Assembly: GCA_041538025.1 (NCBI GenBank)
Contig: JBGOEV010000008.1
Location: forward strand, 2,944 to 66,943
Source of the DNA: Candidatus Thermosaccharophagus gerlachensis
GTDB lineage: Bacteria; Armatimonadota; Fervidibacteria; Fervidibacterales; Thermosaccharophagaceae
DNA length: 64,000 bases
Reading direction: 5' to 3'
Shown here: positions 10,667 to 52,455 of the stretch, one piece after another
Layout: every line of letters begins with the position of its first letter
Numbering within the stretch: the first letter of the stretch is position 1
Translations under genes and position numbers: made by a program
Notes under the pieces: model-generated
The model's input: the letters and a program-made list of their open reading frames with translations, nothing else
What the model was told of the DNA's origin: nothing
The model's database searches: none

Positions 10667-10673
10667 GTTTTAC

Positions 10674-34428: not shown

Positions 34429-34471
34429 GAATGCTTCTTAGGATGCTTCACATCTGATGGTTCATCTCATG

Positions 34472-34564
34472 CGGAGTGGGCGGGATTCGAACCCGCGAGG
34501 GACGGTATTCTCCGCCCCTACGGCTTTTCCAGAGCCGCCCCTTCGTCCACTCGGGCACCACTCC
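34472..34564 (-). tRNA. tRNA-Ser (anticodon GGA)
   Basis: Hand-folded class II tRNA: GGAGTGG acceptor, CGGCT-CTGGAAA-AGCCG anticodon arm, long variable arm, GCGGG-TTCGAAT-CCCGC T arm. Confidence 0.9.
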
Positions 34565-34575
34565 ATTTTCATGAG

Positions 34576-34670
34576 CGGAGAGGGGGGGATTTGAACCCCC
34601 GAGGGATGGTTTTTGCCACCCCTACGCGATTTCGAGTCGCGCCCCTTCAACCAGGCTCGGGCACCTCTCC
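34576..34670 (-). tRNA. tRNA-Ser (anticodon CGA)
   Basis: Hand-folded class II tRNA: GGAGAGG acceptor, CGCGA-CTCGAAA-TCGCG anticodon arm, long variable arm, GGGGG-TTCAAAT-CCCCC T arm. It lies 11 nt from the other tRNA-Ser. Confidence 0.9.
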
Positions 34671-34715
34671 AATTAACCAAGTTTAACGCAACCAGACAGG
34701 ACGAGAAGCCCGTTT

Positions 34716-35537
34716 CTAAGCTTCAACGATTGCCTTCATCTTTTCAAGCCCGATCCGCGCAACCTCCATTGGGTCCTTCTCCCAGAGCGCCCTGTTGAAC
34801 AGCTCAAGCGATATTGCACCACTGTAGCCTCGCTTCATAACCTCTTCAACAGTCTGCCGAAGTGGCAATATGCCGTCACCAGGGTAGATTCTATCGGCAT
34901 CGGTGAGTTTTTCCCTCGGTATCTCTGCTGGCACATCATTGAAGTGGAATATGGCAATAAACTGACCAGTCAGATCTGGCACATCCTCAAGCGATGAACC
35001 ACCTCTGTAAAGGTGAAATGTGTCAAGCACAATTGAGCCATCACTTGCTTTTGAGAGCTTCACTATATCCCATGCTTGCCCAACTTTACTTACGACCTCA
35101 GAAAAGCCAAGGAACTCAACAGCAGGCAGAACACCTATACCCCTGCCAAGCTCAAGCAACTGGAGGTATCTCTCAGCAGCAGCCGAAGGATCAAACGGAA
35201 CTTCACTACGAACAGGCGGTGTTGCAACGATGTGCTTTGCACCAACTTCTGCTGCCTGCTCCATGCGCCTTTTGGCTTCATCAATTGCTTTTCTGTATTC
35301 GTCGCCCGATGTTGTCATCCAGTTGTGGATGGCTATGACGCTTGGAACACTCAAGTTATAATCAGACAACGCCTTAGCTATATCGCTCATCTTTCCACCA
35401 GAGCGGATGTATTCATCCATCTCGTCGTTCCAGAGCTCAATAGCGTCGTAACCGCATTCTCCAGCTATGCGTATCTTATCAAGCAACTTTGCTTGGCGTA
35501 TCGTGCTTGTGTTGAGACAGTATGCCAAACGCTGCAT
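34716..35537 (-). CDS. sugar phosphate isomerase/epimerase (xylose-isomerase-like TIM barrel)
   Basis: Motifs: CGYDAIELW, HIVATPP, LDTFHLY, IFHFNDVP, and ISLELF. The start is at ATG 35537 behind AGGAGGTGA (track start 35588). Confidence 0.8.
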   Translation of the reverse strand: MQRLAYCLNTSTIRQAKLLDKIRIAGECGYDAIELWNDEMDEYIRSGGKMSDIAKALSDYNLSVPSVIAIHNWMTTSGDEYRKAIDEAKRRMEQAAEVGAKHIVATPPVRSEVPFDPSAAAERYLQLLELGRGIGVLPAVEFLGFSEVVSKVGQAWDIVKLSKASDGSIVLDTFHLYRGGSSLEDVPDLTGQFIAIFHFNDVPAEIPREKLTDADRIYPGDGILPLRQTVEEVMKRGYSGAISLELFNRALWEKDPMEVARIGLEKMKAIVEA

Positions 35538-35553
35538 TACCGATCTCACCTCC

Positions 35554-36165
35554 TTACTTGGAACGAGATTCACGCTCCAGCCACTCACTTAACAGTTGCC
35601 TCTGCTCAGCTTCATCCAGCCTCGGCTTGTCATACATCCCAACGCTTCTTCGCTGTTTAAGCGCTTCATACAAGATGACAGCGACCGAGGCAGATACATT
35701 GAGGCTTTGCGAGAAACCCATCTGCGGTATAACTATGCGCTCGTCAGCAAAGCGCAAAGCTGTTTCCGAGACACCATGCTGTTCATTCCCAAAAACGATT
35801 GCTACAGGACGCGTGTAATCAACCTCAGTGAAATCCTTTGCAGTCACATCAATGTGCGTGCAATAGATCAAATAACCAAGCGACTTAAGTTCACACAGAC
35901 ATTCCTCAGTTGATGTGTGGATTATCATCGTGATCCATTGCTGTGCACCTTTGCTTATGCTTGGGTCAAGCACAAGCGGTTTCAAACCGGTGTAAATCAC
36001 ATGCACATACTGCACACCTACGCTATCACAAGTTCGCATTATCGCCGATATGTTGCGCGGGTTACGAATCTCTTCGAGCACCACCCTCAAGTCCGTTTGG
36101 CGCTTCTTCAGCACCTCTACCATCTTGCGCATTCTTTCCTCGGTGACCCGTTGACACATGCTCAC
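35554..36165 (-). CDS. TrmH family tRNA/rRNA 2'-O-methyltransferase
   Basis: SpoU motifs LEEIRNPRNISAIMRTCDSVG, VFGNEQHGVS and QSLNVSASVAVILYE. Confidence 0.8.
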   Translation of the reverse strand: MSMCQRVTEERMRKMVEVLKKRQTDLRVVLEEIRNPRNISAIMRTCDSVGVQYVHVIYTGLKPLVLDPSISKGAQQWITMIIHTSTEECLCELKSLGYLIYCTHIDVTAKDFTEVDYTRPVAIVFGNEQHGVSETALRFADERIVIPQMGFSQSLNVSASVAVILYEALKQRRSVGMYDKPRLDEAEQRQLLSEWLERESRSK

Positions 36166-36193
36166 ACCACTCCAGATGTGGCTTCAAGAAACT

Positions 36194-37210
36194 CTACCGT
36201 TCAACTAATGGAATGGCTACTGGCTTCTTGGTTTCAATTGACATATAGGCAGCCTCAGCAAGCTCAACAGCAGCCATGCCATCGTAACCAGTTATCTCTG
36301 GTTCCCTTCCTTCCCTTATTGCGCTTATGAATTCGTTTAACTCCTGCCAGACTGGCGAATGAGGGAATCGCTCCGAAAGCTCGTCCATGCTTATGCTCCT
36401 TTCCTCACCGTCTGCAGTTCTCACCACCATCTTAGCTCCTTCGCCCCAAAATGATGGGAGCAGTATTGAACCTTTGGTGCAATCAACACGACATCCATAA
36501 CCGCCAATCGCCGAGACTTGGCTTGAATGTAATAAACCGATAGCACCACTTCGGTAGCTCAATGATACGAAAGCGCAATCTGGGTAGTCCCAATCACTGT
36601 GCACATAGTTTCCGCCATGTGCAAAGACACACTCAACTTCACCGCCCACCCACCGCATGAAATCCAACTCGTGCGTGTTTATCTCCATTAAGGCACCACC
36701 AGACTGTGCCCTTGACTTGCGCCAAGGAACATCCCAAACACCACTAAAGCCTCCTCCAACCCTGTAAACGAAAAGCGAGATAAGTTCCCCGAGCCTCCCA
36801 GAAGCTACATTTTCTTTGACAGCCCTATGGAGAGGATAATATCTACACACTTGACCTATCATGAGCTTAACACCGTTGCGCTCGCAAGCTCTAATCATCT
36901 CAAGGCAATCGGAGGTGGTCGGAGCCATCGGCTTTTCACAAAAGATGTGTTTCTTAGCCTCTGCAGCTGTGATAGTTAATTCCTTGTGAGTGAATGGTGG
37001 TGTAGCTATAACAACTGCATCAATTTCAGGATGCGTCACAAAAGCTATCGGGTCCGAGTATGCTGGCACACCATAGCTGTTTGCAAGCTCCATTGCCCTC
37101 TCCTGTGACACATCACAGAAGCCCACAATCTTTGCCCCCTCAACTTTTGCAAGCTCAGATGCAAGCGAACGCCCCATCGCTCCACACCCAACTATGCCAA
37201 CCTTGATCAT
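36194..37210 (-). CDS. Gfo/Idh/MocA family oxidoreductase (no signal peptide)
   Basis: Motifs: IKVGIVGCGAMGRS and CEKPMA. ATG 37210 lies 8 nt after AGGAGGTGA. The track start GTG 37222 is part of that SD. Confidence 0.85.
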   Translation of the reverse strand: MIKVGIVGCGAMGRSLASELAKVEGAKIVGFCDVSQERAMELANSYGVPAYSDPIAFVTHPEIDAVVIATPPFTHKELTITAAEAKKHIFCEKPMAPTTSDCLEMIRACERNGVKLMIGQVCRYYPLHRAVKENVASGRLGELISLFVYRVGGGFSGVWDVPWRKSRAQSGGALMEINTHELDFMRWVGGEVECVFAHGGNYVHSDWDYPDCAFVSLSYRSGAIGLLHSSQVSAIGGYGCRVDCTKGSILLPSFWGEGAKMVVRTADGEERSISMDELSERFPHSPVWQELNEFISAIREGREPEITGYDGMAAVELAEAAYMSIETKKPVAIPLVER

Positions 37211-37393
37211 ATTGCTTTTCACCTCCTAAGCGAGTAACCTGCTTGCAATATTGTCGCATAGAACAATTATAGCGGGTAAGGACCGCGAGCAGGAATGCCT
37301 TAACAAAATGAGGGCATAAACATGAACAAGCTTTCCATCTTGTATCGTCATTTGCTGTAACTTTTACTTCGGCTTTTATCAATGCTTGCCATC

Positions 37394-37894
37394 CTATGGT
37401 GCACTCGCAACCTGTTGAACGGCTGCTTTAAGAGTTTCAAGACGAGGACAGCCGACAAAACCGATGTGGACAAATCCTTTTTTATCAACCAGCAAAACCG
37501 TCGGCACTTTAGTGACCTTGTAGCGTTTCCTGACTCGGCTTCCTCTGTCCAGCAGGATAGGGAAAGAGCCATTAGTTCTTCGCTTCATTCTTTGCCCAAT
37601 CTCTTTCCAAGTTGGATCAACTGTGACGCACAAAATTTGCACCAATGAGGGTGGAATGCTTCCTCTCAAATCGTTTAGGGTCTTCACTGCTCCCTTCCAA
37701 GTATCGCACCAGAATGCCCAAAACACTAAAACGACGACCTTGCCGCGAAACTGAGATAGGCGAACTACCTTGCCACTCAAATCAGGCAATGCAAAGTCAG
37801 GTGCTTGTTTCCCAATTAAATCTTCAACCGCAAATGAACTCTTTAAAAGAGTGAGCAACAAAAACCAAGCAATGCAAAAACTTGTCACCCTCAT
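37394..37894 (-). CDS. secreted thioredoxin-fold redoxin (TlpA/AhpC-TSA-like) with single-Cys WCDTW motif
   Basis: Signal peptide MRVTSFCIAWFLLLTLLKSSFA. Motifs: APDFALPDLSGKVVRLSQFRGKVVVLVFWAFWCDTWK and PTVLLVDKKG. Confidence 0.7.
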   Translation of the reverse strand: MRVTSFCIAWFLLLTLLKSSFAVEDLIGKQAPDFALPDLSGKVVRLSQFRGKVVVLVFWAFWCDTWKGAVKTLNDLRGSIPPSLVQILCVTVDPTWKEIGQRMKRRTNGSFPILLDRGSRVRKRYKVTKVPTVLLVDKKGFVHIGFVGCPRLETLKAAVQQVASAP

Positions 37895-38229
37895 CGCTAC
37901 TCACTTATGTCCTGCACTCGTTCAATCAACTCAGCAGGAGCCTCGCCTTCCAAAAATTCGCCCGCCTTCAGCGCCAGCAAAGAAGCAGGTTCAGGGAAAA
38001 GAGTTTTGAGAGTCTCACGTTCCGCTTGGCTCACTTCGTTTCATTCTTCCCATGCTTGCTCACTTTGCCAAAAAACGCTCCCAGAACTGCTGTTGCACCT
38101 TTTCGGTATCCATAGCGCTCCTGCTTCGCCTTTATGCAGCATAATAGTTGACACTTTAGTAACCTCACAGCGTTTTTCAATTTAGGTCTCCATCCAATGG
38201 GATAGGGAAAGAGCCATCGGCTCTTTAAA

Positions 38230-40101
38230 TCAGAAAACCATGTTGTGAATTGACTCAGCCTCTTTGAGGAAGGCGCTGAATGTCCAAGTCAAATAAAGAA
38301 ATCGTTGTCGGGCAACTGGATCGTCAGCTAACTCAACCAATGCCTTGTCATGCAATGCCTTTAGTTGGGCAACAACCCTTGGAGACCAGATTTCGCGGAA
38401 CAATTCTGCAGGTATGCGCCCTGCATCCCCCAAGTGGCGGCGAAGCCTCCATTCACCAGCTTCCCAAAGGTTGCACTCCAACTGAATAAACTCACGCACG
38501 GTATCACTTGCTTTGCCAAAGAGCCTCCGGCACATCTCATCCAGCACTGCATCCACATCCAAATCAGGGTTCCATAGCACTTTCATCCAAACATAAAGTG
38601 TTGGAGCTGTCGTAGTCCAGTCGCTCGCAATGCCACCATTGATGAATGTTCCAGCAATGATGTCCTTAACAGCTTGATACCAGTCGCGCACGATGTGTGG
38701 ATATTGGAATGGGGCATATGTCCAGCCACTACCTCGGTCGGAATAATCCCAAGTGGTGATAGGTAGCGTGCACTTTGATCTCCAAGCACGCAGGTTCTCA
38801 ATAGCAGCCTTCCATGCACGAGGCATAGTTCTCAGAGCCATTGGGTAGCCAGTCATGCAAACTTGGACTACAAGGTTGTCAGGGAAGTCAATCTCCTTTG
38901 GGCACTCTTGGTAGTTCCAATAGGGAAGGTAAATCACCTTTTTATCAGGCCAACGATGTTTTACAGCCTCGCACATGCGCTTAACAAACAAACCCACAAG
39001 CAATGATGCACCACCTTTTGCTATCGTTTCTCGGCAGGCAGAACAATGACAGCTCACTGGATAATCAGCAGGAGAAACAGTCACGCATGTGGAAGTGACC
39101 CAAGAAGCTACCCTCTCATCGCCACCTTTGTCCCAAACTCGTTCGCAACCTTCAAGAAGAAACTCCAGTGTCTTTGGCGAACTGTAACACAACATGCTCC
39201 AATTTCGGCTACCATCCTCTTTGAGTGCAAACATTTCCTTGTGTTCCTCAAGCCACTTCTCACCGCGTGTCCAGAGGCGCTGAGGCTCGTGAACCTTGAT
39301 CTTGTAAGGCCAACTGCACCCAGCGCGCACAAGTGGCAAATAACTCGCCATCGGAATCTCTTTAACATCTTCAGGGATTGCGCCTGAAGGAAAGGGAAGT
39401 GGTTCCTTGTCAAACCAGCGTGCCTTTGTTGGGAGCTTCCATCCATACGAAGGGTGAAACTCCCGTTGGCGAAAGACAGGTTGATCGCTGTAATGCACTG
39501 GTGGAATGGTGAGCGATGAAGACCGAATAATGCTTCGTCCACCAACCTCAGCAGGCCAATACCATCGCACGCCAACAAACCTCTCCAAGAAATCAGCAAC
39601 AGCCCACGCTGTCCCCTCATTGCTCCAATGTGCCCATGGCGAACTCCCGGAAGGCAATGCCTGTTTACTGCCCACAAGGTAAACCCGGTTCTTGGCTGTC
39701 TTAACCACAAAACCTTCAACCGGGATCTCCTTAGCATCAATGCCAGCCTCGCGTGTCTCCTCACACTCACCAATTACGATGGCGGGTTGGTCAGCAGGTG
39801 GAAGCTCACTGACCACCTTAAGTTTCGCACCGGTGCTCAATTGAATGACATCTATTAGCTCATCAATCAACCGCTTAAGCGTCGCGCTTGGATTTTGCTC
39901 AGCTACATAGACTACTGCTTTTGCCTGCCCGTTGCGCACTATCTCAACTGGTGGATGTGCAGGCGCGTTCTTCCATGTCACGGGTGGTAAGTCAGGTGGT
40001 TTCAGGTCAAGAGCTTGCACTTGTGTGTAGACTACCATCAAAGAGGCTACCCATAGGGACACGAATACAATCCTTTGGATCTGCCAACGAGCTTTTAACA
40101 T
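38230..40101 (-). CDS. DUF4838-like secreted glycan-active protein
   Basis: The GTAWAVADFLERFVGVRWYWP motif and the FVVKTAKNRVYLVG strand match my recollection of DUF4838. The start is set at ATG 40101 (MLKARWQIQRIVFVSLWVASLMVVYTQVQA signal). It has a weak SD, so the start is uncertain (the track ORF reaches 40260). Confidence 0.6.
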   Translation of the reverse strand: MLKARWQIQRIVFVSLWVASLMVVYTQVQALDLKPPDLPPVTWKNAPAHPPVEIVRNGQAKAVVYVAEQNPSATLKRLIDELIDVIQLSTGAKLKVVSELPPADQPAIVIGECEETREAGIDAKEIPVEGFVVKTAKNRVYLVGSKQALPSGSSPWAHWSNEGTAWAVADFLERFVGVRWYWPAEVGGRSIIRSSSLTIPPVHYSDQPVFRQREFHPSYGWKLPTKARWFDKEPLPFPSGAIPEDVKEIPMASYLPLVRAGCSWPYKIKVHEPQRLWTRGEKWLEEHKEMFALKEDGSRNWSMLCYSSPKTLEFLLEGCERVWDKGGDERVASWVTSTCVTVSPADYPVSCHCSACRETIAKGGASLLVGLFVKRMCEAVKHRWPDKKVIYLPYWNYQECPKEIDFPDNLVVQVCMTGYPMALRTMPRAWKAAIENLRAWRSKCTLPITTWDYSDRGSGWTYAPFQYPHIVRDWYQAVKDIIAGTFINGGIASDWTTTAPTLYVWMKVLWNPDLDVDAVLDEMCRRLFGKASDTVREFIQLECNLWEAGEWRLRRHLGDAGRIPAELFREIWSPRVVAQLKALHDKALVELADDPVARQRFLYLTWTFSAFLKEAESIHNMVF

Positions 40102-40385
40102 CCAAGTTGCGACAACATATTTTGCTCCCTTGCCACCTCCACCAAATTCGGGGAACTGAAGCAGATAAAAGCATGCAACCATACTACACCACCTCATAGC
40201 TTTGTTTTGGGAGTTACACAGTTGACTGCCAATTCCCTCCTTCATCAGACTATGGCACAAAATCCCACTTCAAGTATAATTGAACACACTCCCAATCCAG
40301 AGAAAATTGCAACGAGCTATATGTGCTAACTGGAGTGTTTCAATAACCTCAAACTGCTTTTTAGATTCTTTAGCAAACCCTGCCC

Positions 40386-41795
40386 TCATTGATGAACTGT
40401 TAACTTCACTCCAACACCTCTTCCACGCAACTGTGGGCGATACATGATTTGCGCAACTGGTGGGAGTGCAGTTTGAGTGCCCTCTATTTCTGGTCTTAGC
40501 AAATAACTGAAGTGATGTGTCCCTTTCGGCATGTAGGTCATGAAGAGAGCCATCCTGTCATCATGGATTTCGGTTTTCGTCCACCAGTCGCTTGGCAACC
40601 CTTCCACTTTAGCTGGGACTCCAATCACATACTGGACAACTTCCCAACCAGATGGCAATGGGTCTTCAACCATGACATATTCCAAGTTCTGTTTCGCTGT
40701 AATTGTCAACTGCACGGCAACATCTGTCCCAATGCGAACTTCGCTTCCCAAAGGTATCCATTTGCCCCTCTTGTCTTTAACGAGATAGCGACGTTGCACC
40801 GTCAGTAAATTGCCTTCAGCTCTGTTCATGCCCTTCGTTACGAAACCACGAAGAAGCACAGTGTAGTAAACACGACCAATCCCCATTTTCTGGATGGTCA
40901 CCTTGTTTTCACCAACCGAGGCAGGGACTGTCAAAACTATCTCCCCTTGTGGAATATGCTCCGTCGTTATATGCTGCTCATGGACGATATCACCATTCAC
41001 AAAGACTTTCAGTGAATAATTGGCTTGGAATTCACGGAAGCGGGTGATGTAATCAGTCAAAGCTAACAAAGCCACTGCTGTGCTCTTAGTTGAATACCAG
41101 AAGTTGCCTGTGCGTTTAAGCATTAACCACAAAACAGCACCTGTAACTTTCGGATCGTTTGGCTTAAGGCTTAGCAGTGCCTTTAGCGCATACGCTGTCG
41201 CCTCTACATCGCTTTCACCAAGCCTGCACCAAGTCCCTTCCCAAAAACAATATCTGTCAACAAACCGGGCTTGCTTTTCCAAAGCATTGAGGCTTTGTTG
41301 CGCCAAGGTTTTTTCATCCAATCGTGATAAGGCGATGGTAAGAACAGCATGCGCCATTGGAGGTAAAGCCGATTTGCTGGAAGCCTTAACGATGGTTTGG
41401 GCAATCTTTCGCATCTCAATTTCTGAGCCTGCCAACTTGCCCCACGCCGCCTTTGCTTCAGTGAGGGCAAACAGCATGTAAGCCTTCAAAGGCGGTGTGT
41501 TTTCTGAACGAATCAATCTCCATAACGCTTCAATGCCTCTTTGTATACACTTTTGGTCAACATCAAAGCCCATTTGTTGTGCCAAAGCCAGCCCATAGAC
41601 AACATATGCGGTCATGAACCTGTGAGTTATGTCTCCCTTAAACCAACCCCAGCCACCATCGTAGTTCTGCTCATCGTAGATTCTGATCAAACACTCACGC
41701 ACCATCTTAGGGACTTCACGTTCCAGCTTCTCGTTTCGCATCCCCAGCTCCTTCAGGATGTTGAGGACAACAATGTTTGGGACAAACTGCCCCAT
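40386..41795 (-). CDS. alpha-2-macroglobulin family protein, C-terminal part (thioester domain remainder plus receptor-binding-like domains)
   Basis: Motifs: QNYDGGWGWF and FMTAYVVYGLALA (alpha/alpha-toroid thioester domain), followed by beta-rich C-terminal domains. It is in the same frame as 41808..44870 and separated from it only by TGA plus 4 codons (IEQI). Confidence 0.8.
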   Translation of the reverse strand: MGQFVPNIVVLNILKELGMRNEKLEREVPKMVRECLIRIYDEQNYDGGWGWFKGDITHRFMTAYVVYGLALAQQMGFDVDQKCIQRGIEALWRLIRSENTPPLKAYMLFALTEAKAAWGKLAGSEIEMRKIAQTIVKASSKSALPPMAHAVLTIALSRLDEKTLAQQSLNALEKQARFVDRYCFWEGTWCRLGESDVEATAYALKALLSLKPNDPKVTGAVLWLMLKRTGNFWYSTKSTAVALLALTDYITRFREFQANYSLKVFVNGDIVHEQHITTEHIPQGEIVLTVPASVGENKVTIQKMGIGRVYYTVLLRGFVTKGMNRAEGNLLTVQRRYLVKDKRGKWIPLGSEVRIGTDVAVQLTITAKQNLEYVMVEDPLPSGWEVVQYVIGVPAKVEGLPSDWWTKTEIHDDRMALFMTYMPKGTHHFSYLLRPEIEGTQTALPPVAQIMYRPQLRGRGVGVKLTVHQ

Positions 41796-41807
41796 GATTT
41801 GCTCAAT

Positions 41808-44800
41808 TCACCCGTAAGGGTAGCCAACGAGGTATTCCAAACTCCCAAGCATCGGTCCGATAAGTGATGGCGACAAGCGAATCTCTAAGTAACTTGCAGG
41901 AAGGATTGCGTCTTCGGGGAGACGGAGGGTCAAAGTGGCTGTTGTATCCGTAATACCTGACTTTGATTGAACTACTTCCACACCTTTAGGCTTAACGGGC
42001 ACAGATAACTCCAATGCGTCTGTCAAACCACTTTCGGAGGCTACGGCAGCAGTAAAAGTTGCCTTGCCCCTAAACGAAGCTTCAGGGACGTAAACCCACC
42101 AAGTAAATGTGTGAGTGCTGTGAGGCGGAATGACTGCTGTTTGCTCAGGCGCTTCTTGAGTTGCAAGTGCTAATTTACTCGCCGTCACAAAGACCAAAGT
42201 GTGTAGCAAGCCATTGGGCGTTGGTGAATTGTTAGCGAAATTCCAACCCCCTACATTCCTCGCTGCGAACCTTCTTAAGATGTGTTGGTATTTCATTACT
42301 CTCAATGCCACATAACTTGATGAAACTATTGCGCCCTTCGCCTTCAACCCAACGCTAACCTTCTGTGGTTCGTCAGTGTTGTTGTGGACGACTGTGAGGA
42401 TTTTCGCAACATCATGTTGGGTAAAGAAGCGCGGGAGTTGTAAACGGACAAGGATTGGCTTAGTGACGCGAATTTTTTGAATTGTGCTTCCAACCTGTGA
42501 TTGCAAAGTTATTGCTCGAACCGTTGCGCGCCACGTTGTTAAGTTGTCGGGCAATGGAACTTCTACAGTTGCTTCTCCGTTCTCGTCCGTGACTACAAAT
42601 GGATGCCAAAAAGCAGTATCTTCAAATCGGCGACGGACTTCTTCTTCGCTGATTTTTTGGAACGCGCCCGCTGGAATAAGCCCATATCGTGCCTTCTCCT
42701 TCCCCACAACAATATCTCTTTTCACCACCACACTTTCCCAACTTGTCTCAACCAAGTTAGGTCGCCAACCAAAGAAGTATTCGCGTATGTCTGGTGTGCG
42801 ATCGGCTCTCATCGCGAAAATAGCCTCATCAACCAACGCAAAAGATAACTCAGCACTAACTGGTTTGCCTTCAGCATCTCTCGTAACTATACGGTAGCGA
42901 ACTTTCTCGCGAGGTTGATAGATAGGTTTTTCGGTAGTTACTTCCACACGCAAAAATTTCTCGCGGGCTGGAACAACGATTGATTTGTGAGCGCTAATGA
43001 ACCTGCCTTCAAACACATAACCAACACGCAAGTAACTTACGGGTCGCATTTTCTTTGTGATTGGCAATTCAAAAATGGATGACTGATGGTGAAGCGGTAT
43101 CACAAAAGCCTCAAGTATGTCATCACCCTCAACGGTAACAAGCGCCCATACGCCTTTGCGGTTGCTGTTGATGAGCACTTTCGCCACTTCGCCGATGCGG
43201 TAAGTCTTTTTGTCGCAGACAAGTTCCAAAGTTGGGTAGGAGTAGTCAAAATCTCCCTCAGCGCAAACCCAAACCCACACCGCACCAGATGTTAAGTTAC
43301 CTCGTTCGTCACGACCCCAGCAAGCAATGCGATAGTAACCTGCTTTTTGCAACTTGAAAGTCGCATTTGCTGTGCCGTCAGCATCGGTCGTCACCTGTTG
43401 TCGCTCAACCTCTATTCTTTCGTAGCGCTTTGCCTTCCTGTTCCATCTCTCACTTTCAAGAGCCAGATAAAGTTTTACCGAAACCGGTCGCCTTTCAAAA
43501 TCACCCGTTTTGATTTTCACTTTCGCAATTTCGCCAACACGATAAGCATATCTGTCAGTTGCCAGCGCAATTTGGAAAGATGCCCTAAACACCGAACACG
43601 ATGCTGACCCTGAAACTGTCCTGTTGCTTTGGTCGGTTACTTCACAACGGATGAAGTAACGCATGTCATAGTTAGTGCTTCGTTTATGGGCAGTTGGAAC
43701 GGTAAATTTAACAGTTCCGTCCTTGCCTAACTTGGTGGTGCTGCGCATGATGAACTCGCCGTAGTATGGAGGTGTCTCATACCAAGTCTCAAACTCTTCG
43801 GCGAAGGGAGACCACCAAATCGGTGAAGCACTGACGATATATGTGACCTTGCCTTCAGCAACTGGCGCACCAAAGAAATAATTTGCTTTGACGCTAACAT
43901 GAATTTGCTCGCCTTTGATGTAGTAGGGTTTATCAACCGTGACCTTGACTTCAAATTCTGGCTTGCGATACTTAGCGACTTCAAAGTGGGCGAAATGTGT
44001 CTCACCGTCAATCGTTGCGATAATGCCATATTGCCCCAAAGGGGTTGCCTCAGGCAAATCCACCTCACCTGCAAAACTGCCATAGCGATTTGTTGTTAGC
44101 GTCAACCTGGCTATTTCAGTATCTTCAGGGTTGCGGACAACAACCCGAACTTGCTTATCAGCCACAGTTAAATATTCTCCATCCTCAAACTTTCGCACGA
44201 TGCCTTTGAAGTAAACTTTTTGTTTCGGACGGTAAACTGGTCGGTCGGTGTAGATGTAAACAGTGTAGCGTTCTCGTGTCTCTGACCAAACTTCCGTTGT
44301 AGCGATGCTTCCATCAGGAGCAGTTGCAATAACTGTTACATCTTCAAGTTTGTAATCCACCAACGCTAATCCTTTCTTGTCCGTTTTGCCTTGTGCGATG
44401 AGTTTCCGTTTCTCATCAAACAGCCTGACGGAGCATCCACCAATAGGCTTACCAGTTTCTGCATCTGCGGTGAAGACCAAAACTCGTGTTGGCGATTTCT
44501 TAGCGACCAAAAGCACTCGTGTGACATTGATGGTGCGGTCTTCCCTCACCTTGCCTGCTATCATCTCCAACTTATAAACACCAACTTGTAGTAGCGGGAC
44601 TTTTATGAGCGTCTTGTATTCTTTTGGTTTTCGTGTAAAGGTTTTGCTCCAGACCAGTTCTTGCACTGCTTTTTGTCCCATCAACACTTCCTCAAAATTT
44701 TTCACGCGATAAACTCGGAGTGTTGCGGTTCTTCTTCCATCCCACCAAAGTTCAACAGGGACGGAAGGCGAAGGGACTACTTGGTATGGGGCGTATATCC

Positions 44801-44870
44801 ACTGCCCATTTGAAAACGATGGTAACAAAACCATGCAAAGGAGCAAAGTCAACCAACTGTATCGCCACAT
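41808..44870 (-). CDS. alpha-2-macroglobulin family protein, N-terminal part (MG-domain array), ending at an in-frame TGA on the thioester Cys position
   Basis: Signal peptide MWRYSWLTLLLCMVLLPSFSNG after a GGGAGGTGG SD (ATG 44870; track start 45005 overlaps the upstream gene). There are successive ~100-aa beta-sandwich repeats. It ends ...SLEYLVGYPYG-TGA. Confidence 0.8.
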   Translation of the reverse strand: MWRYSWLTLLLCMVLLPSFSNGQWIYAPYQVVPSPSVPVELWWDGRRTATLRVYRVKNFEEVLMGQKAVQELVWSKTFTRKPKEYKTLIKVPLLQVGVYKLEMIAGKVREDRTINVTRVLLVAKKSPTRVLVFTADAETGKPIGGCSVRLFDEKRKLIAQGKTDKKGLALVDYKLEDVTVIATAPDGSIATTEVWSETRERYTVYIYTDRPVYRPKQKVYFKGIVRKFEDGEYLTVADKQVRVVVRNPEDTEIARLTLTTNRYGSFAGEVDLPEATPLGQYGIIATIDGETHFAHFEVAKYRKPEFEVKVTVDKPYYIKGEQIHVSVKANYFFGAPVAEGKVTYIVSASPIWWSPFAEEFETWYETPPYYGEFIMRSTTKLGKDGTVKFTVPTAHKRSTNYDMRYFIRCEVTDQSNRTVSGSASCSVFRASFQIALATDRYAYRVGEIAKVKIKTGDFERRPVSVKLYLALESERWNRKAKRYERIEVERQQVTTDADGTANATFKLQKAGYYRIACWGRDERGNLTSGAVWVWVCAEGDFDYSYPTLELVCDKKTYRIGEVAKVLINSNRKGVWALVTVEGDDILEAFVIPLHHQSSIFELPITKKMRPVSYLRVGYVFEGRFISAHKSIVVPAREKFLRVEVTTEKPIYQPREKVRYRIVTRDAEGKPVSAELSFALVDEAIFAMRADRTPDIREYFFGWRPNLVETSWESVVVKRDIVVGKEKARYGLIPAGAFQKISEEEVRRRFEDTAFWHPFVVTDENGEATVEVPLPDNLTTWRATVRAITLQSQVGSTIQKIRVTKPILVRLQLPRFFTQHDVAKILTVVHNNTDEPQKVSVGLKAKGAIVSSSYVALRVMKYQHILRRFAARNVGGWNFANNSPTPNGLLHTLVFVTASKLALATQEAPEQTAVIPPHSTHTFTWWVYVPEASFRGKATFTAAVASESGLTDALELSVPVKPKGVEVVQSKSGITDTTATLTLRLPEDAILPASYLEIRLSPSLIGPMLGSLEYLVGYPYG

Positions 44871-44944
44871 AAAATCCACCTCCCAACCTAACGACCTTTG
44901 TGATGCACTATCGTTCATCGCTGTTAAAAATTTTGTCCTATCCC

Positions 44945-45580
44945 CTACCCCGAAAGGAAGGAGTGGACGAAAGAGACCCTCCACCTTATTGCTTTCATCA
45001 ACCACATTTCAAAGTTTTCGTTTTTGCTCAAACCCGCCTTTCGCATTGCCCACTCCAAACGAACCAAAGGGTCTTTCCCTTCGTAGGGCAATACTACACC
45101 AACTTTCTCACCTCGCCTTACAACCAAGCCATGCTCAGGGCTCAAAGCATAGATGTTGTCCAATGGTGTTAACTTTTGGACGACAGTAATGCTGACGATA
45201 AGGCGGGACAACTCATTTACCTTCAGAGGGCGAAAACGCTTATCACGGCAGGCATGAATAGATGCTCGGATAATTTCATCAGCCAATGAACGCTGTGTAG
45301 GAAATAAAGTCCCTCTACAACCTCGCAAGGTGAGAGTGCCGTTTCTTTCCTTTGTCTCAATTGTGACAAAACAACCTGCTCGGATGCGGATGTTGGTGTT
45401 GGTTGGCTTAGGTAAATCAGCACCTTTGTCTTTGACAGTTGCTACGATAGCACTGTAGGCAAGTTGAGCAAGCTGATTTTGGACTTTTCTGTCATGTAAC
45501 TTTTCCCAGTCACCTTCTTCAGCGTGCCTCAAATTTGTGCTCAACAGCACCAACATAAGACACAGCTTTGCATGACTCAT
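44945..45580 (-). CDS. AMMECR1 domain protein with N-terminal signal peptide
   Basis: Core sequence RAGCFVTIETKERNGTLTLRGCRGTL ... DKRFRPL (AMMECR1). N-terminus MSHAKLCLMLVLLSTNLRHAEE. GGAGGAAA SD. Confidence 0.75.
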   Translation of the reverse strand: MSHAKLCLMLVLLSTNLRHAEEGDWEKLHDRKVQNQLAQLAYSAIVATVKDKGADLPKPTNTNIRIRAGCFVTIETKERNGTLTLRGCRGTLFPTQRSLADEIIRASIHACRDKRFRPLKVNELSRLIVSITVVQKLTPLDNIYALSPEHGLVVRRGEKVGVVLPYEGKDPLVRLEWAMRKAGLSKNENFEMWLMKAIRWRVSFVHSFLSG

Positions 45581-45831
45581 TTCTCTATTTCCTCCAGCGC
45601 ATGGTCAAACAGCGATGCCCTCAGTAACAACCTAATAGCACGTAAGGTAGCAGAGAAGTGTAGCAAGGACTTTTGTAAAGCCCTGCATGAGAGGCTTCAG
45701 CAGATTGATGCAAAACAACCATCACGATATTAGCGCTTCGGTATCGGTTACACTTAAACTGCCCATAGGTCAACGCAAACTAAACGAATGCTAAAATGCA
45801 ACTTAGCACATGATGTGGGAGGTGCTACGCT

Positions 45832-46629
45832 ATGTGCAGTGAAGGCATAGTTGATTACTCGTGTGCGAAAAGGCGTGGACAAAGGTTATCGCCTACTCTG
45901 GTATTGCTTCTCTTCATTATCGCGAAGCTGTTTGAATTTTCGCACGGGTTAGCGTTTGCAACACAACAAAGCTCAACACAAACTGCAGGTAAGGACATAA
46001 CGTGCTTGTTTGATGATGAGGCTTTCAAAGAGCGCATAAAGAAGAAACTCCCACTGCTCTTCCAAATCGCTGAGGAGCGCTCGTCAAGGGCTGGCAAAAT
46101 AGGCATGGAAGTAGGCACGCTCAGGGAGCAGATACTTATAGCGATGCTGATTTACAAATTCGGGCGAAAGGCTGTTGATGTGAACACTCCGCCAAACTAT
46201 CCAGAAGTAGATGTGATGCTCTTTGGGAAACCAATTTCAATCAAGACAGTCACTGTGAGGTCAAATGCGACACCCACTTTAAAGCTCGTCTGGACCGTTG
46301 ACTGGCTCAAGGTGGAAGAGTTTGTGAGAGGCTATGAGCCACGCTCTGATATGCTTCTTGTCATCATAAGGTGGGGTGGCTATGGTGGTCTGTTCGCTAT
46401 ACCATTGAGTGCACAGAAGGATGTCTTCAACAAGATGGGTAAAGAGAGCTATCTCAAGCTGCCTCAAAAGGGGACGAACCCGAGAGGCATTGAAATTTCA
46501 AAGGAGGCTCTCTCAGCATTGCTGAAGCACCATGAAACGCGCTCTGTTGAAATATTTTGGGAGCGCAAGAAGGGAACAGAAGAGCTTGAGCCATATTCAC
46601 AATGGCTGGCATATTGGGCTGAGGAGTGA
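45832..46629 (+). CDS. hypothetical protein, possible PD-(D/E)XK nuclease / small type II restriction-endonuclease-like
   Basis: GGGAGGTG SD 7 nt upstream of the ATG. Candidate nuclease core PEVDVMLFGKPISIKT preceded by SRAGKIGMEVGTLREQILIAMLIYKFG. The N-terminal 60 aa contain a hydrophobic stretch, so the true start may be internal. Confidence 0.4.
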   Translation: MCSEGIVDYSCAKRRGQRLSPTLVLLLFIIAKLFEFSHGLAFATQQSSTQTAGKDITCLFDDEAFKERIKKKLPLLFQIAEERSSRAGKIGMEVGTLREQILIAMLIYKFGRKAVDVNTPPNYPEVDVMLFGKPISIKTVTVRSNATPTLKLVWTVDWLKVEEFVRGYEPRSDMLLVIIRWGGYGGLFAIPLSAQKDVFNKMGKESYLKLPQKGTNPRGIEISKEALSALLKHHETRSVEIFWERKKGTEELEPYSQWLAYWAEE

Positions 46630-46655
46630 GAACTTAAAGCGGGTGAGTAGGAGAC

Positions 46656-48992
46656 ATGGACGAACGGACTTTGAAGCTGCTTGAATTTGACAAAATTGTT
46701 GAAATGCTACAACTGCATGCACGCACAACATTCGGTCGTGAGCTTGTAGCATCACTGAAGCCCTTTACCAATTTTGAGGAGGTAAAGAGGAAGCTTAAGG
46801 ATACGAGCGATGTGAGAAGGTGGCTTGAAAAACATGGCGTGCCACCGATTGGCTCAGTTAGGGATGTGAGGGCAGAAATTGAGAAAGCCTCTTCTGGCAT
46901 AATGCTTGATACAAGCGAATTGCTTAAGATAGCAAGCGCCCTCTCAGCTGCGTGGGAGGTAAAAACACAACTTGAAAGGAGCAACGAGTTGCCCGAGTGC
47001 TTGCAGAGGCTGTCAAGCCAGATCTCGGATTTAAGATGGCTCTCAGAATCCATACGGAGGGCAATTGATGAAAACGGAAATGTAGTTGATGATGCGTCAC
47101 CGAGACTGCGTCGTATAAGGGCTTCAATACGCTCCACAAGGGATAGCCTAATGCGAAAACTGCAGTCAATCCTCTCCGACAAAGATATCCAAGCTGCTCT
47201 GCAAGAACCAATAGTGACTGTGCGGAATGGCAGATATTGCATCCCAGTGAAGGCTTCAAGGAGACAAAGCGTCAAGGGCATCGTGCATGATAAGTCATCT
47301 TCTGGGCTAACGCTTTTCGTTGAGCCAGAGGAAATCGTAGAGTTGGGCAACCAACTTCGGGAGCTTCAACTTGACGAGGAAAGAGAGGTTAAACACATAC
47401 TGCGTAGCTTAACCGATGCTTTCATCAACTCAATAGAGGAGGTCAAGATAACGCTCAACGCGATAGCTCACATTGACTGTCTATTCTCGCTCGCTGAGTT
47501 TTCGCTCTCCCTCAAATGTGTTGAACCAGAGGTAAGCCCGGATGGCGCAACGAAGCTACTTGGTGCTCGCCACCCATTGCTTGGTGAGAGGGCAGTCCCG
47601 ATTGATGTCGCTATTGGTGGTGATTTTGATGTTCTGGTCATAACTGGTCCAAACATGGGTGGCAAAACCGTGACATTAAAGACGATAGGGCTTTTGACGC
47701 TCATGGCGCAAGCTGGCATGCACATACCTGCGAAAGAGGGCTCACGCATAAGAGTGTTTGAGAAGGTTTTCGCTGACATCGGTGAGGAACAAAGCATAGA
47801 ACAAAACATCAGCACATTCTCATCCCACATACTGAACATCATCAAGATGCTGAAACACGCCGATGAAAGAACACTCGTGCTTATTGATGAGATTGGGGCA
47901 GGCACAGATCCAGAGGAAGGAGCTGCGCTCGCTAAGGCGATACTGCTCAAGTTCCACGAAATGGGAGCAAAGGTTGTATGCACAACACACATCGGTGAAC
48001 TAAAAGCTTTCTCATACACCCACCAAAGGTTTATGAACGCCTCAATGGGGTTTAACATGGAGAAGTTACAGCCCACTTACAAGCTCATCATGGGTTTCCC
48101 TGGCAGGAGCTATGCTCTTACTGTAGCAAGCCAACTTGGGATGCCGAGCGAAGTGATTGAGAAGGCAATGCAGTTGCGCCGTTCAATTTCTGTTGAGTGG
48201 GAGGAAGCTCTCAAAACACTTGAAGCACAGAAGAGAGAAATGCAAAAGATGATGGAGGAGGTTGAACATGAACGTTCCAACCTACAGCAGTTGATTCAAC
48301 GTTACAACATGGAGCTTGAAGAACTTCGCGAGGAGAAAGAACGCATCTTGGAACAGGCTCGTAAAGAAGCAACGGAGATGCTAAACAAGGTGAGCGAGGA
48401 AGCCGAGAGGATATTGGCTGACATGCGAAGACAAACAAGAGAAAGTGTAGTTACAGAAAGATTGCGCAGGCGTTTGCACAAACTCAAGCAAGAGATCATG
48501 CCGAAGACAGGCGATGCGATTCAGCCTTCGGAACTCCCGAAGGTTGGCGAAAAGGTGTTTGTGCCTAAAGCGCAAGTTTATGGAGTGGTCATCAAAGTGA
48601 AGGAAGAAACAAAAGAGGTGCTCGTTGAAGCTAATGGTATTCGCATCTGGCTTCCAGCAAGCGACATCCAAAAGGTTGCAGAAGAAAGCACGGTTGAAAA
48701 GACATATCTCCCATCTGGGTTGAGGTTGCGCAAGTTCGCCTCAATCCCAAAGGAGATAAACATCATCGGTAAGACAGTAGATGAGGCTCTACCGATGGTG
48801 GATAAGTTCCTTGATGACGCAGTTCTTGCTGGACATGAAGTGGTGCGCATAATACACGGTAAAGGGACAGGCAAACTCCGTCAAGCTATACATGAGTTTT
48901 TGAGCAAGCACTTACATGTAGAGTCGTTTGGATTCGCACCACTTAACGAAGGTGGTTCTGGCACAACAGTTGTTAGGTTGAAGAAGCTGTAG
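46656..48992 (+). CDS. mutS2: endonuclease MutS2 (Smr domain)
   Basis: Motifs: ITGPNMGGKTVTLKT, LIDEIGAGTDPEEGAALA, a long coiled-coil, and the C-terminal Smr sequence INIIGKTVDEAL ... RIIHGKGTGKLR. Confidence 0.95.
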   Translation: MDERTLKLLEFDKIVEMLQLHARTTFGRELVASLKPFTNFEEVKRKLKDTSDVRRWLEKHGVPPIGSVRDVRAEIEKASSGIMLDTSELLKIASALSAAWEVKTQLERSNELPECLQRLSSQISDLRWLSESIRRAIDENGNVVDDASPRLRRIRASIRSTRDSLMRKLQSILSDKDIQAALQEPIVTVRNGRYCIPVKASRRQSVKGIVHDKSSSGLTLFVEPEEIVELGNQLRELQLDEEREVKHILRSLTDAFINSIEEVKITLNAIAHIDCLFSLAEFSLSLKCVEPEVSPDGATKLLGARHPLLGERAVPIDVAIGGDFDVLVITGPNMGGKTVTLKTIGLLTLMAQAGMHIPAKEGSRIRVFEKVFADIGEEQSIEQNISTFSSHILNIIKMLKHADERTLVLIDEIGAGTDPEEGAALAKAILLKFHEMGAKVVCTTHIGELKAFSYTHQRFMNASMGFNMEKLQPTYKLIMGFPGRSYALTVASQLGMPSEVIEKAMQLRRSISVEWEEALKTLEAQKREMQKMMEEVEHERSNLQQLIQRYNMELEELREEKERILEQARKEATEMLNKVSEEAERILADMRRQTRESVVTERLRRRLHKLKQEIMPKTGDAIQPSELPKVGEKVFVPKAQVYGVVIKVKEETKEVLVEANGIRIWLPASDIQKVAEESTVEKTYLPSGLRLRKFASIPKEINIIGKTVDEALPMVDKFLDDAVLAGHEVVRIIHGKGTGKLRQAIHEFLSKHLHVESFGFAPLNEGGSGTTVVRLKKL

Positions 48993-49021
48993 AAGCGCAA
49001 CGATGAAGGGTGAAACGGGTA

Positions 49022-50980
49022 ATGAAAGGGAATCCGTGGTTTCACCTTGCACTTTTGTTTATAGCCATATGCATAGTCAGCGCAAGCCAAAAGGAAGCAA
49101 ATGACAAACCCATTGTGCAGTTATCGGTCAAACTCCCGTGGAGAGTGGAAGCGATAGAAAAGTTGCGTGACTTGGTTGAATCCACTGAGAAGCTGTTAGA
49201 AAAAGTTACAGTTGAACTAAGCCTTGAAGACGGCTTGAAGGAGGTAGAGGGAATTGATGTAGCGCTTGAGCGACTGAGCCAATTTATATCGGTTGCAAGG
49301 CATAACGGGTTTGCCATAGCTGTGAGCGTTGACTTGGACAACATCCCAAAGCTTTCTGGGGTTGATCTGCCAACTCGTTCACTCGTCGTATCGGGGAAAG
49401 CATCAGAAGAGCCATCACTGTTTGCGCCTCATGCTGTTCAAGCTTATGCTACGGTTTTCAAATTGCTCTCAAGGCGCCTAAAGGGGCAGGTTAATGCACT
49501 CACGCTGCGGATACCACAACTTGACCCTCAACCTTTAAAGGGCAACGAGATTGGTTGGCATATGCCTTACGACCTCTGGTGTGGAGATAGGTTCGCGAAG
49601 ATCGCTTTCAGGGATTATGTGAGGAGCAAGTATGTGGCGCTCTCAGCTTTGAGAGAAGCATGGGGAGTGAGTGTTGAGCGATGGGAGGATGTTGTTTATC
49701 CGATGCAGCGGAGTGATGAGGATTGGGTGAACTTGCCCGCTGGCATGCGTCGCCATTGGCTTGACTTCGTCAGCTGGTATTGTGAAGCAGTAAACAGCTT
49801 CATTAGTGAGCTTGCAAGACAAGCAAGGAAAGCCTTTCCACAGGTAATGCTCACATTTGAATTACCTTTGAAAGCAACACCGCTGACTGGGTGGCAGTTG
49901 AGCACACTCGTGCGTGAAGCCCCAATTGATACCAACACATCCTTTAGGGTGGACGCAGATGCGCCTTTGCTCTGTTTGGCATTACTTTCAAAGGCTTGCG
50001 AGTTCTACAAAGTTAAAGTTGCTTGCAATGTGCACCTCGGTGATAAGAAGGCAAAAAGAGGTAGCCTTATGCTTCAAGGTAACAACGCTATTGGCTTTCA
50101 AGCGTTTGCTGTAGCACTCCTTCAACCAGAAGCATTGGCACTAACCGTTGATGAGGTGCCAAGGTTGCTGCGCATGTTTGAGGACGGTGAATTGCTCATC
50201 CCACGCAAGCATTTGACGGATGTTGCGGTGCTTTTACCAACTACTTCAATTTTGCTTTCCCCACAAACGCTTTTAGAGTTCGGTGAGCGCTTAAGCACTA
50301 TTGTTGATGCAGTGCCCTGCGATTTGATTGACGAGATTCTACTACTTAATGGCGCATGCGAGGACTACCGCTTGCTTATTGCGCCTGCCGGGAGTATCTT
50401 TTGCCATGCTTCGTTAGAGAAGATGATGAGTTGGGTTGAAAGGGGTGGCATTCTCCTCATCGGATCAAATGAGGTGTGGACAGATGTAAGTGGCAAATGT
50501 GAGATCGCAAAAAGAATCGGAATTGAGCATCGGGGTGATGATGCACAACTCATACAGCTTATAAAGCTTCTTTCTGGCTTTAAGCGTGTTGCCGATGTCC
50601 CGCTTGAAGTCATGAAGGACGTATACGCAGGTTTGATTAAGCGTTTGGGGAATGGGTTTATCGTGTGGTTTCCAATTGGTGAGTTAAAAGAGAGTCCAAA
50701 AGCTTTTACGCTCGTTGCATCCGATCTGGCATTTGATATTTCAAAGTGTGCAAGCGTTGCAGGGCGTGCCATCTCACCGTTTCACACATGGCAACCGATA
50801 GCAAAGCTCTCAGAAATTGATGACATCCTTTTCCTCTGGCACGATGGAGTTGTTACACTTTTTAACGCCTCTACACAAATGCAAACTATTACTATGCAAA
50901 CACGCGTGGGAGATGTAAAGCGAACATTGGCACCATACGAAGCATCCTTTGTATCTGTGCGTAGTAGCAACAATCCATAA
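49022..50980 (+). CDS. secreted hypothetical protein with GH42-like (beta-galactosidase-like) layout
   Basis: Signal peptide MKGNPWFHLALLFIAICIVSASQ. FRDYVRSKYVALSALREAWG and DYRLLIAPAGSIFCHASLEKMMSWVERGGILLIG resemble the GH42 barrel and trimerisation-domain segments. This assignment is weak. Confidence 0.4.
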   Translation: MKGNPWFHLALLFIAICIVSASQKEANDKPIVQLSVKLPWRVEAIEKLRDLVESTEKLLEKVTVELSLEDGLKEVEGIDVALERLSQFISVARHNGFAIAVSVDLDNIPKLSGVDLPTRSLVVSGKASEEPSLFAPHAVQAYATVFKLLSRRLKGQVNALTLRIPQLDPQPLKGNEIGWHMPYDLWCGDRFAKIAFRDYVRSKYVALSALREAWGVSVERWEDVVYPMQRSDEDWVNLPAGMRRHWLDFVSWYCEAVNSFISELARQARKAFPQVMLTFELPLKATPLTGWQLSTLVREAPIDTNTSFRVDADAPLLCLALLSKACEFYKVKVACNVHLGDKKAKRGSLMLQGNNAIGFQAFAVALLQPEALALTVDEVPRLLRMFEDGELLIPRKHLTDVAVLLPTTSILLSPQTLLEFGERLSTIVDAVPCDLIDEILLLNGACEDYRLLIAPAGSIFCHASLEKMMSWVERGGILLIGSNEVWTDVSGKCEIAKRIGIEHRGDDAQLIQLIKLLSGFKRVADVPLEVMKDVYAGLIKRLGNGFIVWFPIGELKESPKAFTLVASDLAFDISKCASVAGRAISPFHTWQPIAKLSEIDDILFLWHDGVVTLFNASTQMQTITMQTRVGDVKRTLAPYEASFVSVRSSNNP

Positions 50981-51003
50981 ACGGGAGTGGAGGTGAAAGG
51001 GCG

Positions 51004-51990: not shown

Positions 51991-52038
51991 TCTCACAATG
52001 CCGTAAGAGCGCTTGGTCCAAAAACTCTGCCCAAGTGA

Positions 52039-52066
52039 TTACAAGTTCGCTTTGGTGCGGTAAAAT
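52039..52066 (+). promoter_or_regulatory. sigma-70-like promoter (TTACAA - 16 nt - TAAAAT) upstream of ssrA
   Basis: Hexamers at 52039-52044 and 52061-52066, about 40 nt before the mature tmRNA 5' end. Confidence 0.3.
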
Positions 52067-52104
52067 AAGATACGGCAATACTGAACCTTCCGAAACGATA
52101 AAGT

Positions 52105-52455
52105 GGGGGCGAATTGGGCTCGACGCTGAAAGCCGAGGTGTTGGCTGCGAGCCGGGTGGGCGCGAGTCCCGTTAACAACGCGCAAACTTACAAATGCCGA
52201 GCCTGTTGCTTTGGCTGCCTAATTGACGGCAGCACGTCCTGCTGACGCTCGCCGGTGGCGTTGGACAGGGCGTCAGATAGCCGGCTGCGCAGCGGTGAGA
52301 GCCAGCATAGCCGCTGCTAAGACAGATGCTGGCTTGCTCGCTTGGTATTCCGCTCGCCGAAGACCAAGCGAGGAGAGGTAAAAGGCGAGATACGCTCGTA
52401 GACGCCAACACTGAGGTTTCAGCGGACGCGGGTTCGATTCCCGCCGCCTCCACCA
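52105..52455 (+). ncRNA. ssrA: tmRNA (SsrA)
   Basis: The 5' end reads GGGGGCGAAUUGGGCUCGACG. The 3' end is tRNA-like: GCGGG-UUCGAUU-CCCGC T arm, CGCCUCC acceptor strand, and encoded ACCA. The internal tag frame ends ...AAU GCC GAG CCU GUU GCU UUG GCU GCC UAA (NAEPVALAA stop at 52220-52222). Confidence 0.9.

Follow-up and report, generated by a model that had tools for sequence, protein, structure and literature searches.

We have studied an alpha-2-macroglobulin (A2M) gene of Candidatus Thermosaccharophagus gerlachensis, located on the minus strand of a stretch of 64,000 nucleotides of DNA (contig JBGOEV010000008.1, positions 2,944 to 66,943), which we term the window. The gene contains a single in-frame TGA, placed exactly on the codon for the cysteine of the thioester box, and the RNA that follows this codon can form a small hairpin. 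The question addressed here is how the codon is read, and the comparative data suggest that it probably specifies selenocysteine (Sec). The features discussed are collected in Table 1.

An A2M reading frame with TGA at the thioester codon

Read on the minus strand, the sequence at the junction is GGC TAC CCT TAC GGG TGA ATT GAG CAA ATC ATG GGG CAG TTT GTC CCA, corresponding to GYPYG*IEQIMGQFVP. Two open reading frames (ORFs), 41808..45005 and 40386..41795, occupy the same frame here, and only the TGA and four sense codons lie between them, confirming on the sequence what a preliminary description of this DNA had stated. The frame that opens at Met 44870 and closes with the stop at 40386 comprises 1495 codons, with codon 1021 as its sole internal stop. 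Read-through with insertion of Sec (U) would give the junction peptide YPYG-U-IEQIMGQFVPNIVVLNILK.

The read-through product has the full architecture of a macroglobulin. Matches to the Pfam families bMG3, MG2, MG3, bMG5, A2M_BRD, A2M, TED_complement and bMG10 were found, all of them above the gathering score, among them MG2 (E = 1.3e-29), TED_complement (2.3e-24), bMG10 (1.3e-23), A2M (1.2e-22) and A2M_BRD (1.2e-18). In an alignment with Anopheles TEP1 (PDB 2pn5, GCGEQNM) the internal stop falls on the thioester Cys, in agreement with the position originally assigned to it, and the region around the stop also has matches in Salmonella A2M (4u48) and E. coli YfhM/ECAM (5a42). The Glu-Gln and the flanks of the family's defining Cys-x-Glu-Gln box are present, while the Cys codon is TGA; if UGA is read as Sec, the box would be present as its chalcogen analog, with a putative internal ester. 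The window copy can be aligned over its full length with the intact orthologs at loci L086, L006 and L008 and carries no further defect, so that the earlier view of a gene of normal length with an undecayed downstream part has been borne out.

The bacterial A2Ms with a CxEQ thioester (ECAM/YfhM and Salmonella A2M), as well as TEP1, C3, human A2M and CD109, share this architecture and a homologous TED. The context of the reactive box, YPYG-x-x-EQ-x-M, is the same in known A2M and TEP proteins as it is here, and the window protein has a candidate N-terminal export signal, whereas in the present gene the reactive Cys codon is UGA accompanied by a candidate recoding hairpin. The solved A2Ms of E. 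coli and Salmonella were deposited as lipoproteins, whereas no lipobox is evident by eye in the window protein. Between the A2M domain and the TED lies a hypervariable segment rich in indels (approximately 42080-42250, minus strand, residues ~875-930), which in the window and L086 exceeds that of L006, L008, L007 and L009 by ~25-30 residues.

A TGA codon would be unremarkable if UGA were a sense codon throughout the genome, for which nothing speaks beyond the in-frame TGA itself. However, TGA ends 27 of the window's 46 long ORFs, among them glyQ, ffh and thrS, in keeping with the preliminary observation that it is an ordinary stop elsewhere. Since TGA is the commonest ordinary terminator of the window, the genetic code is standard and reassignment is excluded; we assign it a negligible probability. 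No other credible in-frame TGA occurs in the window, and a search for further genes with an in-frame TGA, in the window and the loci of genomes with TGA-containing macroglobulins, gave off-frame noise only.

Table 1. Positions of the A2M gene, the proposed recoding elements and the adjacent genes in the window (hairpin nucleotides numbered from the U of UGA)
Feature	Position	Strand	Remarks
Complete A2M gene, read through TGA	40386..44870	-	1494 residues including the putatively recoded position 1021
Terminator of the A2M gene, TGA	40386-40388	-	
In-frame TGA, proposed Sec codon, residue 1021	41808..41810	-	Thioester Cys position; conserved in orthologs
Thioester box U-I-E-Q (TGA ATT GAG CAA)	41799..41810	-	Includes Gln, the would-be acyl partner; read directly from sequence
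Upper stem-loop, proposed bacterial SECIS	41778..41794	-	U17-A33, G18-C32, G19-C31, G20-C30, G21.U29, C22-G28
Apical loop A23 G24 U25 U26 U27	41784-41788	-	
Possible lower helix, nt 7-12 with 41-48	41763..41804	-	Weakly supported; part of the minimum free energy fold
Signal-peptide-like N-terminal segment MWRYSWLTLLLCMVLLPSFSNGQ	44802..44870	-	Hydrophobic, kept in orthologs; judged by eye
Shine-Dalgarno-like GGGAGG	44879..44884	-	Upstream of Met 44870
Exported single-Cys thioredoxin-fold protein	37394..37894	-	FWAFWCDTWK in place of CxxC; NCBIfam ResA-like matches
DUF4838-family ORF, 650-676 aa	38230..40260	-	Between A2M and thioredoxin-fold genes, window lineage only
AMMECR1 / AmmeMemoRadiSam-A-like gene	44945-45580	-	Directly upstream of A2M; also in L002, L008

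Conservation of the codon and the downstream hairpin in close relatives

In a protein search the closest relatives proved to be split at the same place, with C-terminal halves of 464-469 aa at 54-84% identity and matching N-terminal halves, and the homologs at ≤37% identity were all unsplit. The DNA of relatives (from NCBI metagenome-assembled genomes (MAGs), JGI, ENA and Logan assemblies), together with a metagenome scan and the window itself, provided six distinct orthologous lineages (54-84% protein identity). TGA is present at this codon in all six. A metagenome pattern allowing all synonymous variants of G-Y-P-Y-G-*-I-E-Q-I-M returned no lineages beyond these. By contrast, TGC or TGT was found in each of 47 distinct, more distant homologs examined (Cys forms). 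The comparison of orthologs proposed in the preliminary description thus gives a conserved TGA and not TGY, with Cys in distant homologs only, and stem pairs that covary (see below). Pairwise dN/dS values lie between 0.08 and 0.14 on either side of the TGA, and dS ranges from 0.6 to >2. The population of the window is represented by two more assemblies (JGI 3300009598 and ENA ERZ27245611), in which there are 12 substitutions in 4871 nt and the TGA is kept.

These data bear directly on whether the TGA could be a plain nonsense mutation, the mark of a newly arisen pseudogene or an artifact of sequencing or assembly at 41808-41810; both a very fresh pseudogene and an assembly error had been entertained at the outset. 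TGA is one substitution from TGC or TGT, and real disruptions elsewhere in the gene do occur in some relatives, one of which has lost most of it. Yet the codon has survived saturated synonymous divergence with purifying selection on both sides (dN/dS ~0.1), and it is therefore not a recent nonsense mutation. An assembly error is refuted by the independent assemblies, which differ at 12 positions yet have the TGA in common. Moreover, the window copy is without other defects, and 37 further genomes from other phyla have the same substitution (see below). On these sequence comparisons the explanation appears, for practical purposes, to be refuted, and we regard it as highly improbable.

The constraint on the nucleotide sequence was analyzed over the 742 aligned codons common to the six lineages. 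Synonymous variation is seen in 86% of the degenerate codons whose amino acid is invariant, and 88% of third positions vary, including that of every codon directly upstream of the TGA. Beginning with the TGA, 20 nt show no variation. A segment of 33 nt starting at the TGA contains four variable positions, which is the minimum for the gene (median 18), and the codons ATT GAG CAA ATC that follow the TGA (Ile-Glu-Gln-Ile, to 41796) have undergone no synonymous change in any of the six lineages, nor did such a change come up in the metagenome scan, whose pattern permitted it. Within the conserved block, TGA ATT GAG CAA ATC ATG GGR CRG TTY GTC CC, lies the hairpin GGGRC / RGUUY / GUCCC, in which stem position 21 (R) faces U29 and the pair alternates between A-U and G.U.

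The hairpin exists exactly as first drawn, in its pairs, its AGUUU loop and its location. Its core pairs 18-22/28-32 are formed in 30 of 30 cells of the six-lineage alignment. The extension by a lower helix reaching 41763, which was also part of the original drawing, fared less well: 81% of cells pair, with changes from G-C to G.U tolerated, and it forms part of the minimum free energy (MFE) fold, but no compensatory change was found. Since the 5′ arm of this helix is invariant no compensatory change can be scored, and the lower helix remains optional.

The bacterial selenocysteine insertion sequence (SECIS) model of Zhang and Gladyshev, bSECIS, is described in a 2026 review (PMC13188914). It has an apical loop of 3-9 nt, an upper stem of 4-16 bp, a G in the first two loop positions that is usually followed by G or U, a spacing from UGA to loop of 16-37 nt, and an MFE ≤ −7.5 kcal/mol. 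The window hairpin falls within all of these limits, with a 5 nt loop (AGUUU, beginning A-G-U), a stem of 6 bp, a spacing of 19 nt and ΔG = −8.4 kcal/mol (−14.2 kcal/mol for the region). When IEQIMGQFVPNIVVLN was recoded synonymously according to the codon usage of the gene, 44 of 5000 recodings (0.9%) gave an equally stable hairpin with a G-containing loop at that position. Because so few do as well, the choice of codons favors the hairpin. Bacterial selenoprotein genes with an intragenic SECIS, such as E. coli fdhF, have the same combination of an in-frame UGA, Cys homologs, and an adjacent hairpin with G-U in the loop at the canonical distance. Unlike the fdhF-type SECIS, the present hairpin has no evident bulged U, and its stem is short (5-6 bp in the clade).

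Recurrence of the codon and hairpin in other phyla

One genome from each of 185,579 species was scanned for the pattern TAY CCN TAY GGN TGA NNN GAR CAR. A single Cys-containing protein query had missed relatives, which an alignment query together with DNA patterns recovered. The scan gave 83 matches, against ~70 estimated by chance, and 37 of these lie inside macroglobulin genes with frames open on both sides. They come from Candidatus Poribacteria (12 species), Thermodesulfobacteriota / 'delta proteobacterium' (7), Myxococcota / Polyangia (6), Planctomycetota (6), Verrucomicrobiota (2), and one species each from the Vicinamibacteria (Acidobacteriota), the Abditibacteriales (Armatimonadota), the Armatimonadota relative SKYB17 and an unclassified bacterium. 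Extra stops soon after the junction were present in 2 of the 37.

Is the hairpin also present in these genes? A hairpin of ≥5 bp with ΔG ≤ −5 and a loop starting between +20 and +30 was found at 33 of 40 TGA-containing junctions (putative Sec forms) and at 5 of 47 Cys junctions (Fisher p = 6.5e-12, uncorrected for kinship). Typical loops of the putative Sec forms are GGUUC, GGUCU(U) and CGUCG. The mean MFE of nt +4 to +52 was −15.4 for these forms and −10.6 for the Cys forms, again uncorrected for kinship. The forms from Armatimonadota, Planctomycetota and Thermodesulfobacteriota have a common peptide register, x-E-Q-x-M-x-[RK]-F-x-P. Across these three phyla the helix 16-22/28-34 is 82% paired, compared with 25-53% in slid registers, and there are compensatory changes at pair 20-30 (CG in six, GC in six) and pair 22-28 (CG in seven, AU in four). 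The covariation score was 0.30 compared with 0.13 for shuffles, 0 of 500 of which reached 0.30. It is these comparative data, not the folding energy, that support the hairpin.

Some TGA-macroglobulins deviate in their best hairpin, namely L100 (Abditibacteriales SKYG70), L105 and L163 (Verrucomicrobiales and Vicinamibacteria), L154 and L164. In the deviating clades its loop either starts further downstream, at +36 to +38, or is longer, and L172 forms no simple hairpin of ≥5 bp. The macroglobulin family may have recoding elements of more than one class.

In a rough neighbor-joining tree the putative Sec forms are spread over at least five clades, with Cys forms interleaved between them. Selenoprotein families in which Cys and Sec are exchanged usually show such interleaving. 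The putative Sec solution would have arisen, or spread, in several macroglobulin clades of at least seven bacterial phyla.

The same data bear on the possibility of a conserved two-piece macroglobulin, in which the TGA would be a true stop, the TED/MG8 half would be re-initiated at ATG 41795 and the conserved nucleotides would be a coupling signal. Gene callers in every database do split the gene at the TGA, an in-frame ATG stands four codons past the stop in the clade, and the 12-nt spacer between them is invariant. However, that spacer still spells I-E-Q, and a mere spacer has no reason to keep a thioester box. The ATG encodes the Met that is conserved in the CxEQxM box, and the TGA forms of Poribacteria and Myxococcota have no Met in the ~30 displayed residues past the stop. 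In at least five separate clades it is precisely the Cys codon that is occupied by the stop. Furthermore, no Shine-Dalgarno motif precedes the ATG (41795-41793), unlike most genes here and the macroglobulin's own start; the ATG is partly paired, its G lying in the hairpin stem; and the C-terminal piece has no export signal, the only such segment seen by eye in the translation being the N-terminus of the protein. By these last three properties and the lack of a nearby Met in those other clades, the downstream half would hardly be made on its own and probably needs read-through, and we consider a two-piece protein quite improbable.

Decoding of the UGA and the genes around it

The conclusion that emerges is that the gene probably encodes one secreted A2M of 1494 residues, in which UGA 1021 is decoded as Sec. 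Such recoding, with a SECIS-like hairpin beginning at U17, was put forward in the preliminary description, and the conserved TGA, the fit to the bSECIS model and the covariation of the stem support it.

A number of observations weigh against this conclusion. The folding energy of the single sequence is unremarkable (z = −0.17 compared with dinucleotide shuffles), and no Rfam SECIS family matched 41650-41900 at E up to 10. The MFE of the whole segment compared with synonymous recodings separates the two forms moderately (mean z = −1.3 for putative Sec and −0.4 for Cys forms), the position-specific hairpin test being much sharper. The covariation rests on few evolutionary changes, and the Sec/Cys statistics are uncorrected for phylogeny. 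Within the clade the gene can be dispensed with, and in some members it has decayed. Within one lineage of ~98% identity L086 is intact, L002 and L003 have an 8-nt deletion (CAAGCAAG; 7629-7700) and L088 has a 1-nt insertion ~2010 nt upstream of its TGA; these lesions reflect either pseudogenization now under way in part of the populations or errors of assembly. In Ca. Thermosaccharophagus yellowstonensis the macroglobulin is reduced to remnants. There is no tRNA-Sec, selA, selB or selD within the window or any fetched locus: ARAGORN found no tRNA-Sec in the window and 49 loci, an Rfam scan of the window at gathering thresholds gave tRNAs and tmRNA only, NCBIfam annotation of 32 window ORFs included no selA, selB or selD, and tblastn with E. 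coli SelA, SelB and SelD gave no match in the window and ~180 loci. Lastly, we infer the formation of a selenoester (see below) from chemistry alone.

A rival reading, in keeping with the absence of Sec machinery from the window and the fetched loci, is read-through independent of SelB in an organism lacking that machinery, in which the hairpin stimulates decoding of UGA by a near-cognate tRNA, inserting Trp or Cys to give a minority of full-length and a majority of truncated protein. Downstream structures can promote read-through in other systems. However, the hairpin has the specific features of a bSECIS, its small loop carrying G-U and lying 19 nt from the UGA, and codon and hairpin recur in phyla that include selenoprotein-rich groups such as the Thermodesulfobacteriota. 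Trp would abolish the reactive center, and Cys could simply be encoded by TGY, as in all other homologs. We therefore consider SelB-independent read-through improbable.

If the UGA is decoded as Sec, the canonical bacterial pathway suggests how this would occur. SelB-GTP carrying Sec-tRNA(Sec) would bind the hairpin (nt 17-33 as numbered from the U of the UGA, loop A-G-U-U-U), and deliver Sec once the UGA reaches the ribosomal A site, so that in the box G-U-I-E-Q Sec would stand where the thioester Cys is otherwise found. As the Cys does in forming the Cys-Gln thioester, the selenol of Sec1021 would then be expected to attack the side chain of Gln1024 to form an internal gamma-glutamyl selenoester, a more reactive analog of the A2M/C3 thioester. 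On cleavage of the bait region, the selenoester would acylate a nucleophile on the attacking protease, trapping it covalently, and this transfer would be faster than that from a thioester. In synthetic chemistry selenoesters are far better acyl donors than thioesters. We lean, if only slightly, toward the view that Sec forms such a selenoester and acts as a hyper-reactive covalent trap, a non-redox, acyl-transfer role for Sec in an unrecognized family of at least seven phyla that has been mis-annotated as two truncated genes.

The proposed host differs from known selenoproteins in that it is not an oxidoreductase, and its Sec would occupy an acyl-transfer (thioester) site and not a UxxC or CxxU redox motif. 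It is likely, in our view, that this is a new selenoprotein family with Sec in an acyl-transfer rather than a redox site. Full-text literature searches turned up no publication that connects a bacterial macroglobulin with selenocysteine or SECIS, consistent with the earlier impression that a seleno-ester A2M was undescribed. Papers on Fervidibacter and the Sungai Klah MAGs contain nothing on selenium. A May 2026 catalog of 119 prokaryotic selenoprotein families contains no macroglobulin, A2M, MG2, YfaS, thioester or selenoester. The deep-Sep supplements do not mention macroglobulin, A2M, YfaS, thioester or MG2; candidate lists elsewhere (e.g., Deng et al., 2026) could still include one.

If Sec bears the acyl group, this would to our knowledge be the first natural protein selenoester. 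Sec at the acyl-bearing 'warhead' position would, if true, be a mechanistically different use of the residue, and would provide a natural experiment on how the reactivity of macroglobulin and complement traps is tuned. Since every database copy examined for the clade is split into two 'genes', censuses of macroglobulins and counts of selenoproteomes would both be affected.

Bacterial A2M genes are usually paired with pbpC. Here there is no pbpC among the annotated flanking genes; the conserved neighbors are the AMMECR1-like gene and the gene for the single-Cys thioredoxin-fold protein. The latter adjoins the TGA-macroglobulin downstream in L002, L004, L007, L008 and L009, i.e., in all five other lineages of the clade. 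A general partnership with the macroglobulins was rejected, as the adjacency is limited to the Fervidibacteria-like clade; the protein is a possible partner of the macroglobulin of that clade, and one may speculate that it handles the selenol, e.g., via a selenenylsulfide. It is partially matched by NF041054, a ResA-like selenoprotein family with the motif WAxxUGC (E = 4.5e-15), but scores 55.8 bits where the cut-off is 300, and its WAFWCDTW has one Cys and no Sec.

In Ca. T. yellowstonensis the region 3244-13925 of locus L011 (JBGOEK010000007.1) is syntenic with 34471-52455 of the window, the two having in common the tmRNA (tag AEPVALAA) and a pair of genes for tRNA-Ser(cga) and tRNA-Ser(gga). 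The remnants in L011 correspond to macroglobulin residues 1043-1199 and 1306-1350 and to the last 51 residues of the thioredoxin-fold gene. This looks like joint loss of the two genes in a sister lineage.

The DUF4838-family ORF is absent at the corresponding position in L002-L009. It had no NCBIfam match, and a near-identical product in L175 is assigned to PF16126; it is probably outside the macroglobulin system. Elsewhere in the window, two adjacent paralogs of beta-ketoacyl-ACP synthase II are encoded at 7133-9580 on the plus strand, the second being far more divergent (185 versus 380 bits with the fabF model). The 64 kb also contain four paralogs of GFO/IDH/MocA-type sugar dehydrogenases (3575-4876, 25061-26398, 36194-37222 and 51004-51990), and two of them look like glycoside 3-dehydrogenases (BT_2158 family), which would fit a Fervidibacteria-like organism that degrades polysaccharides.

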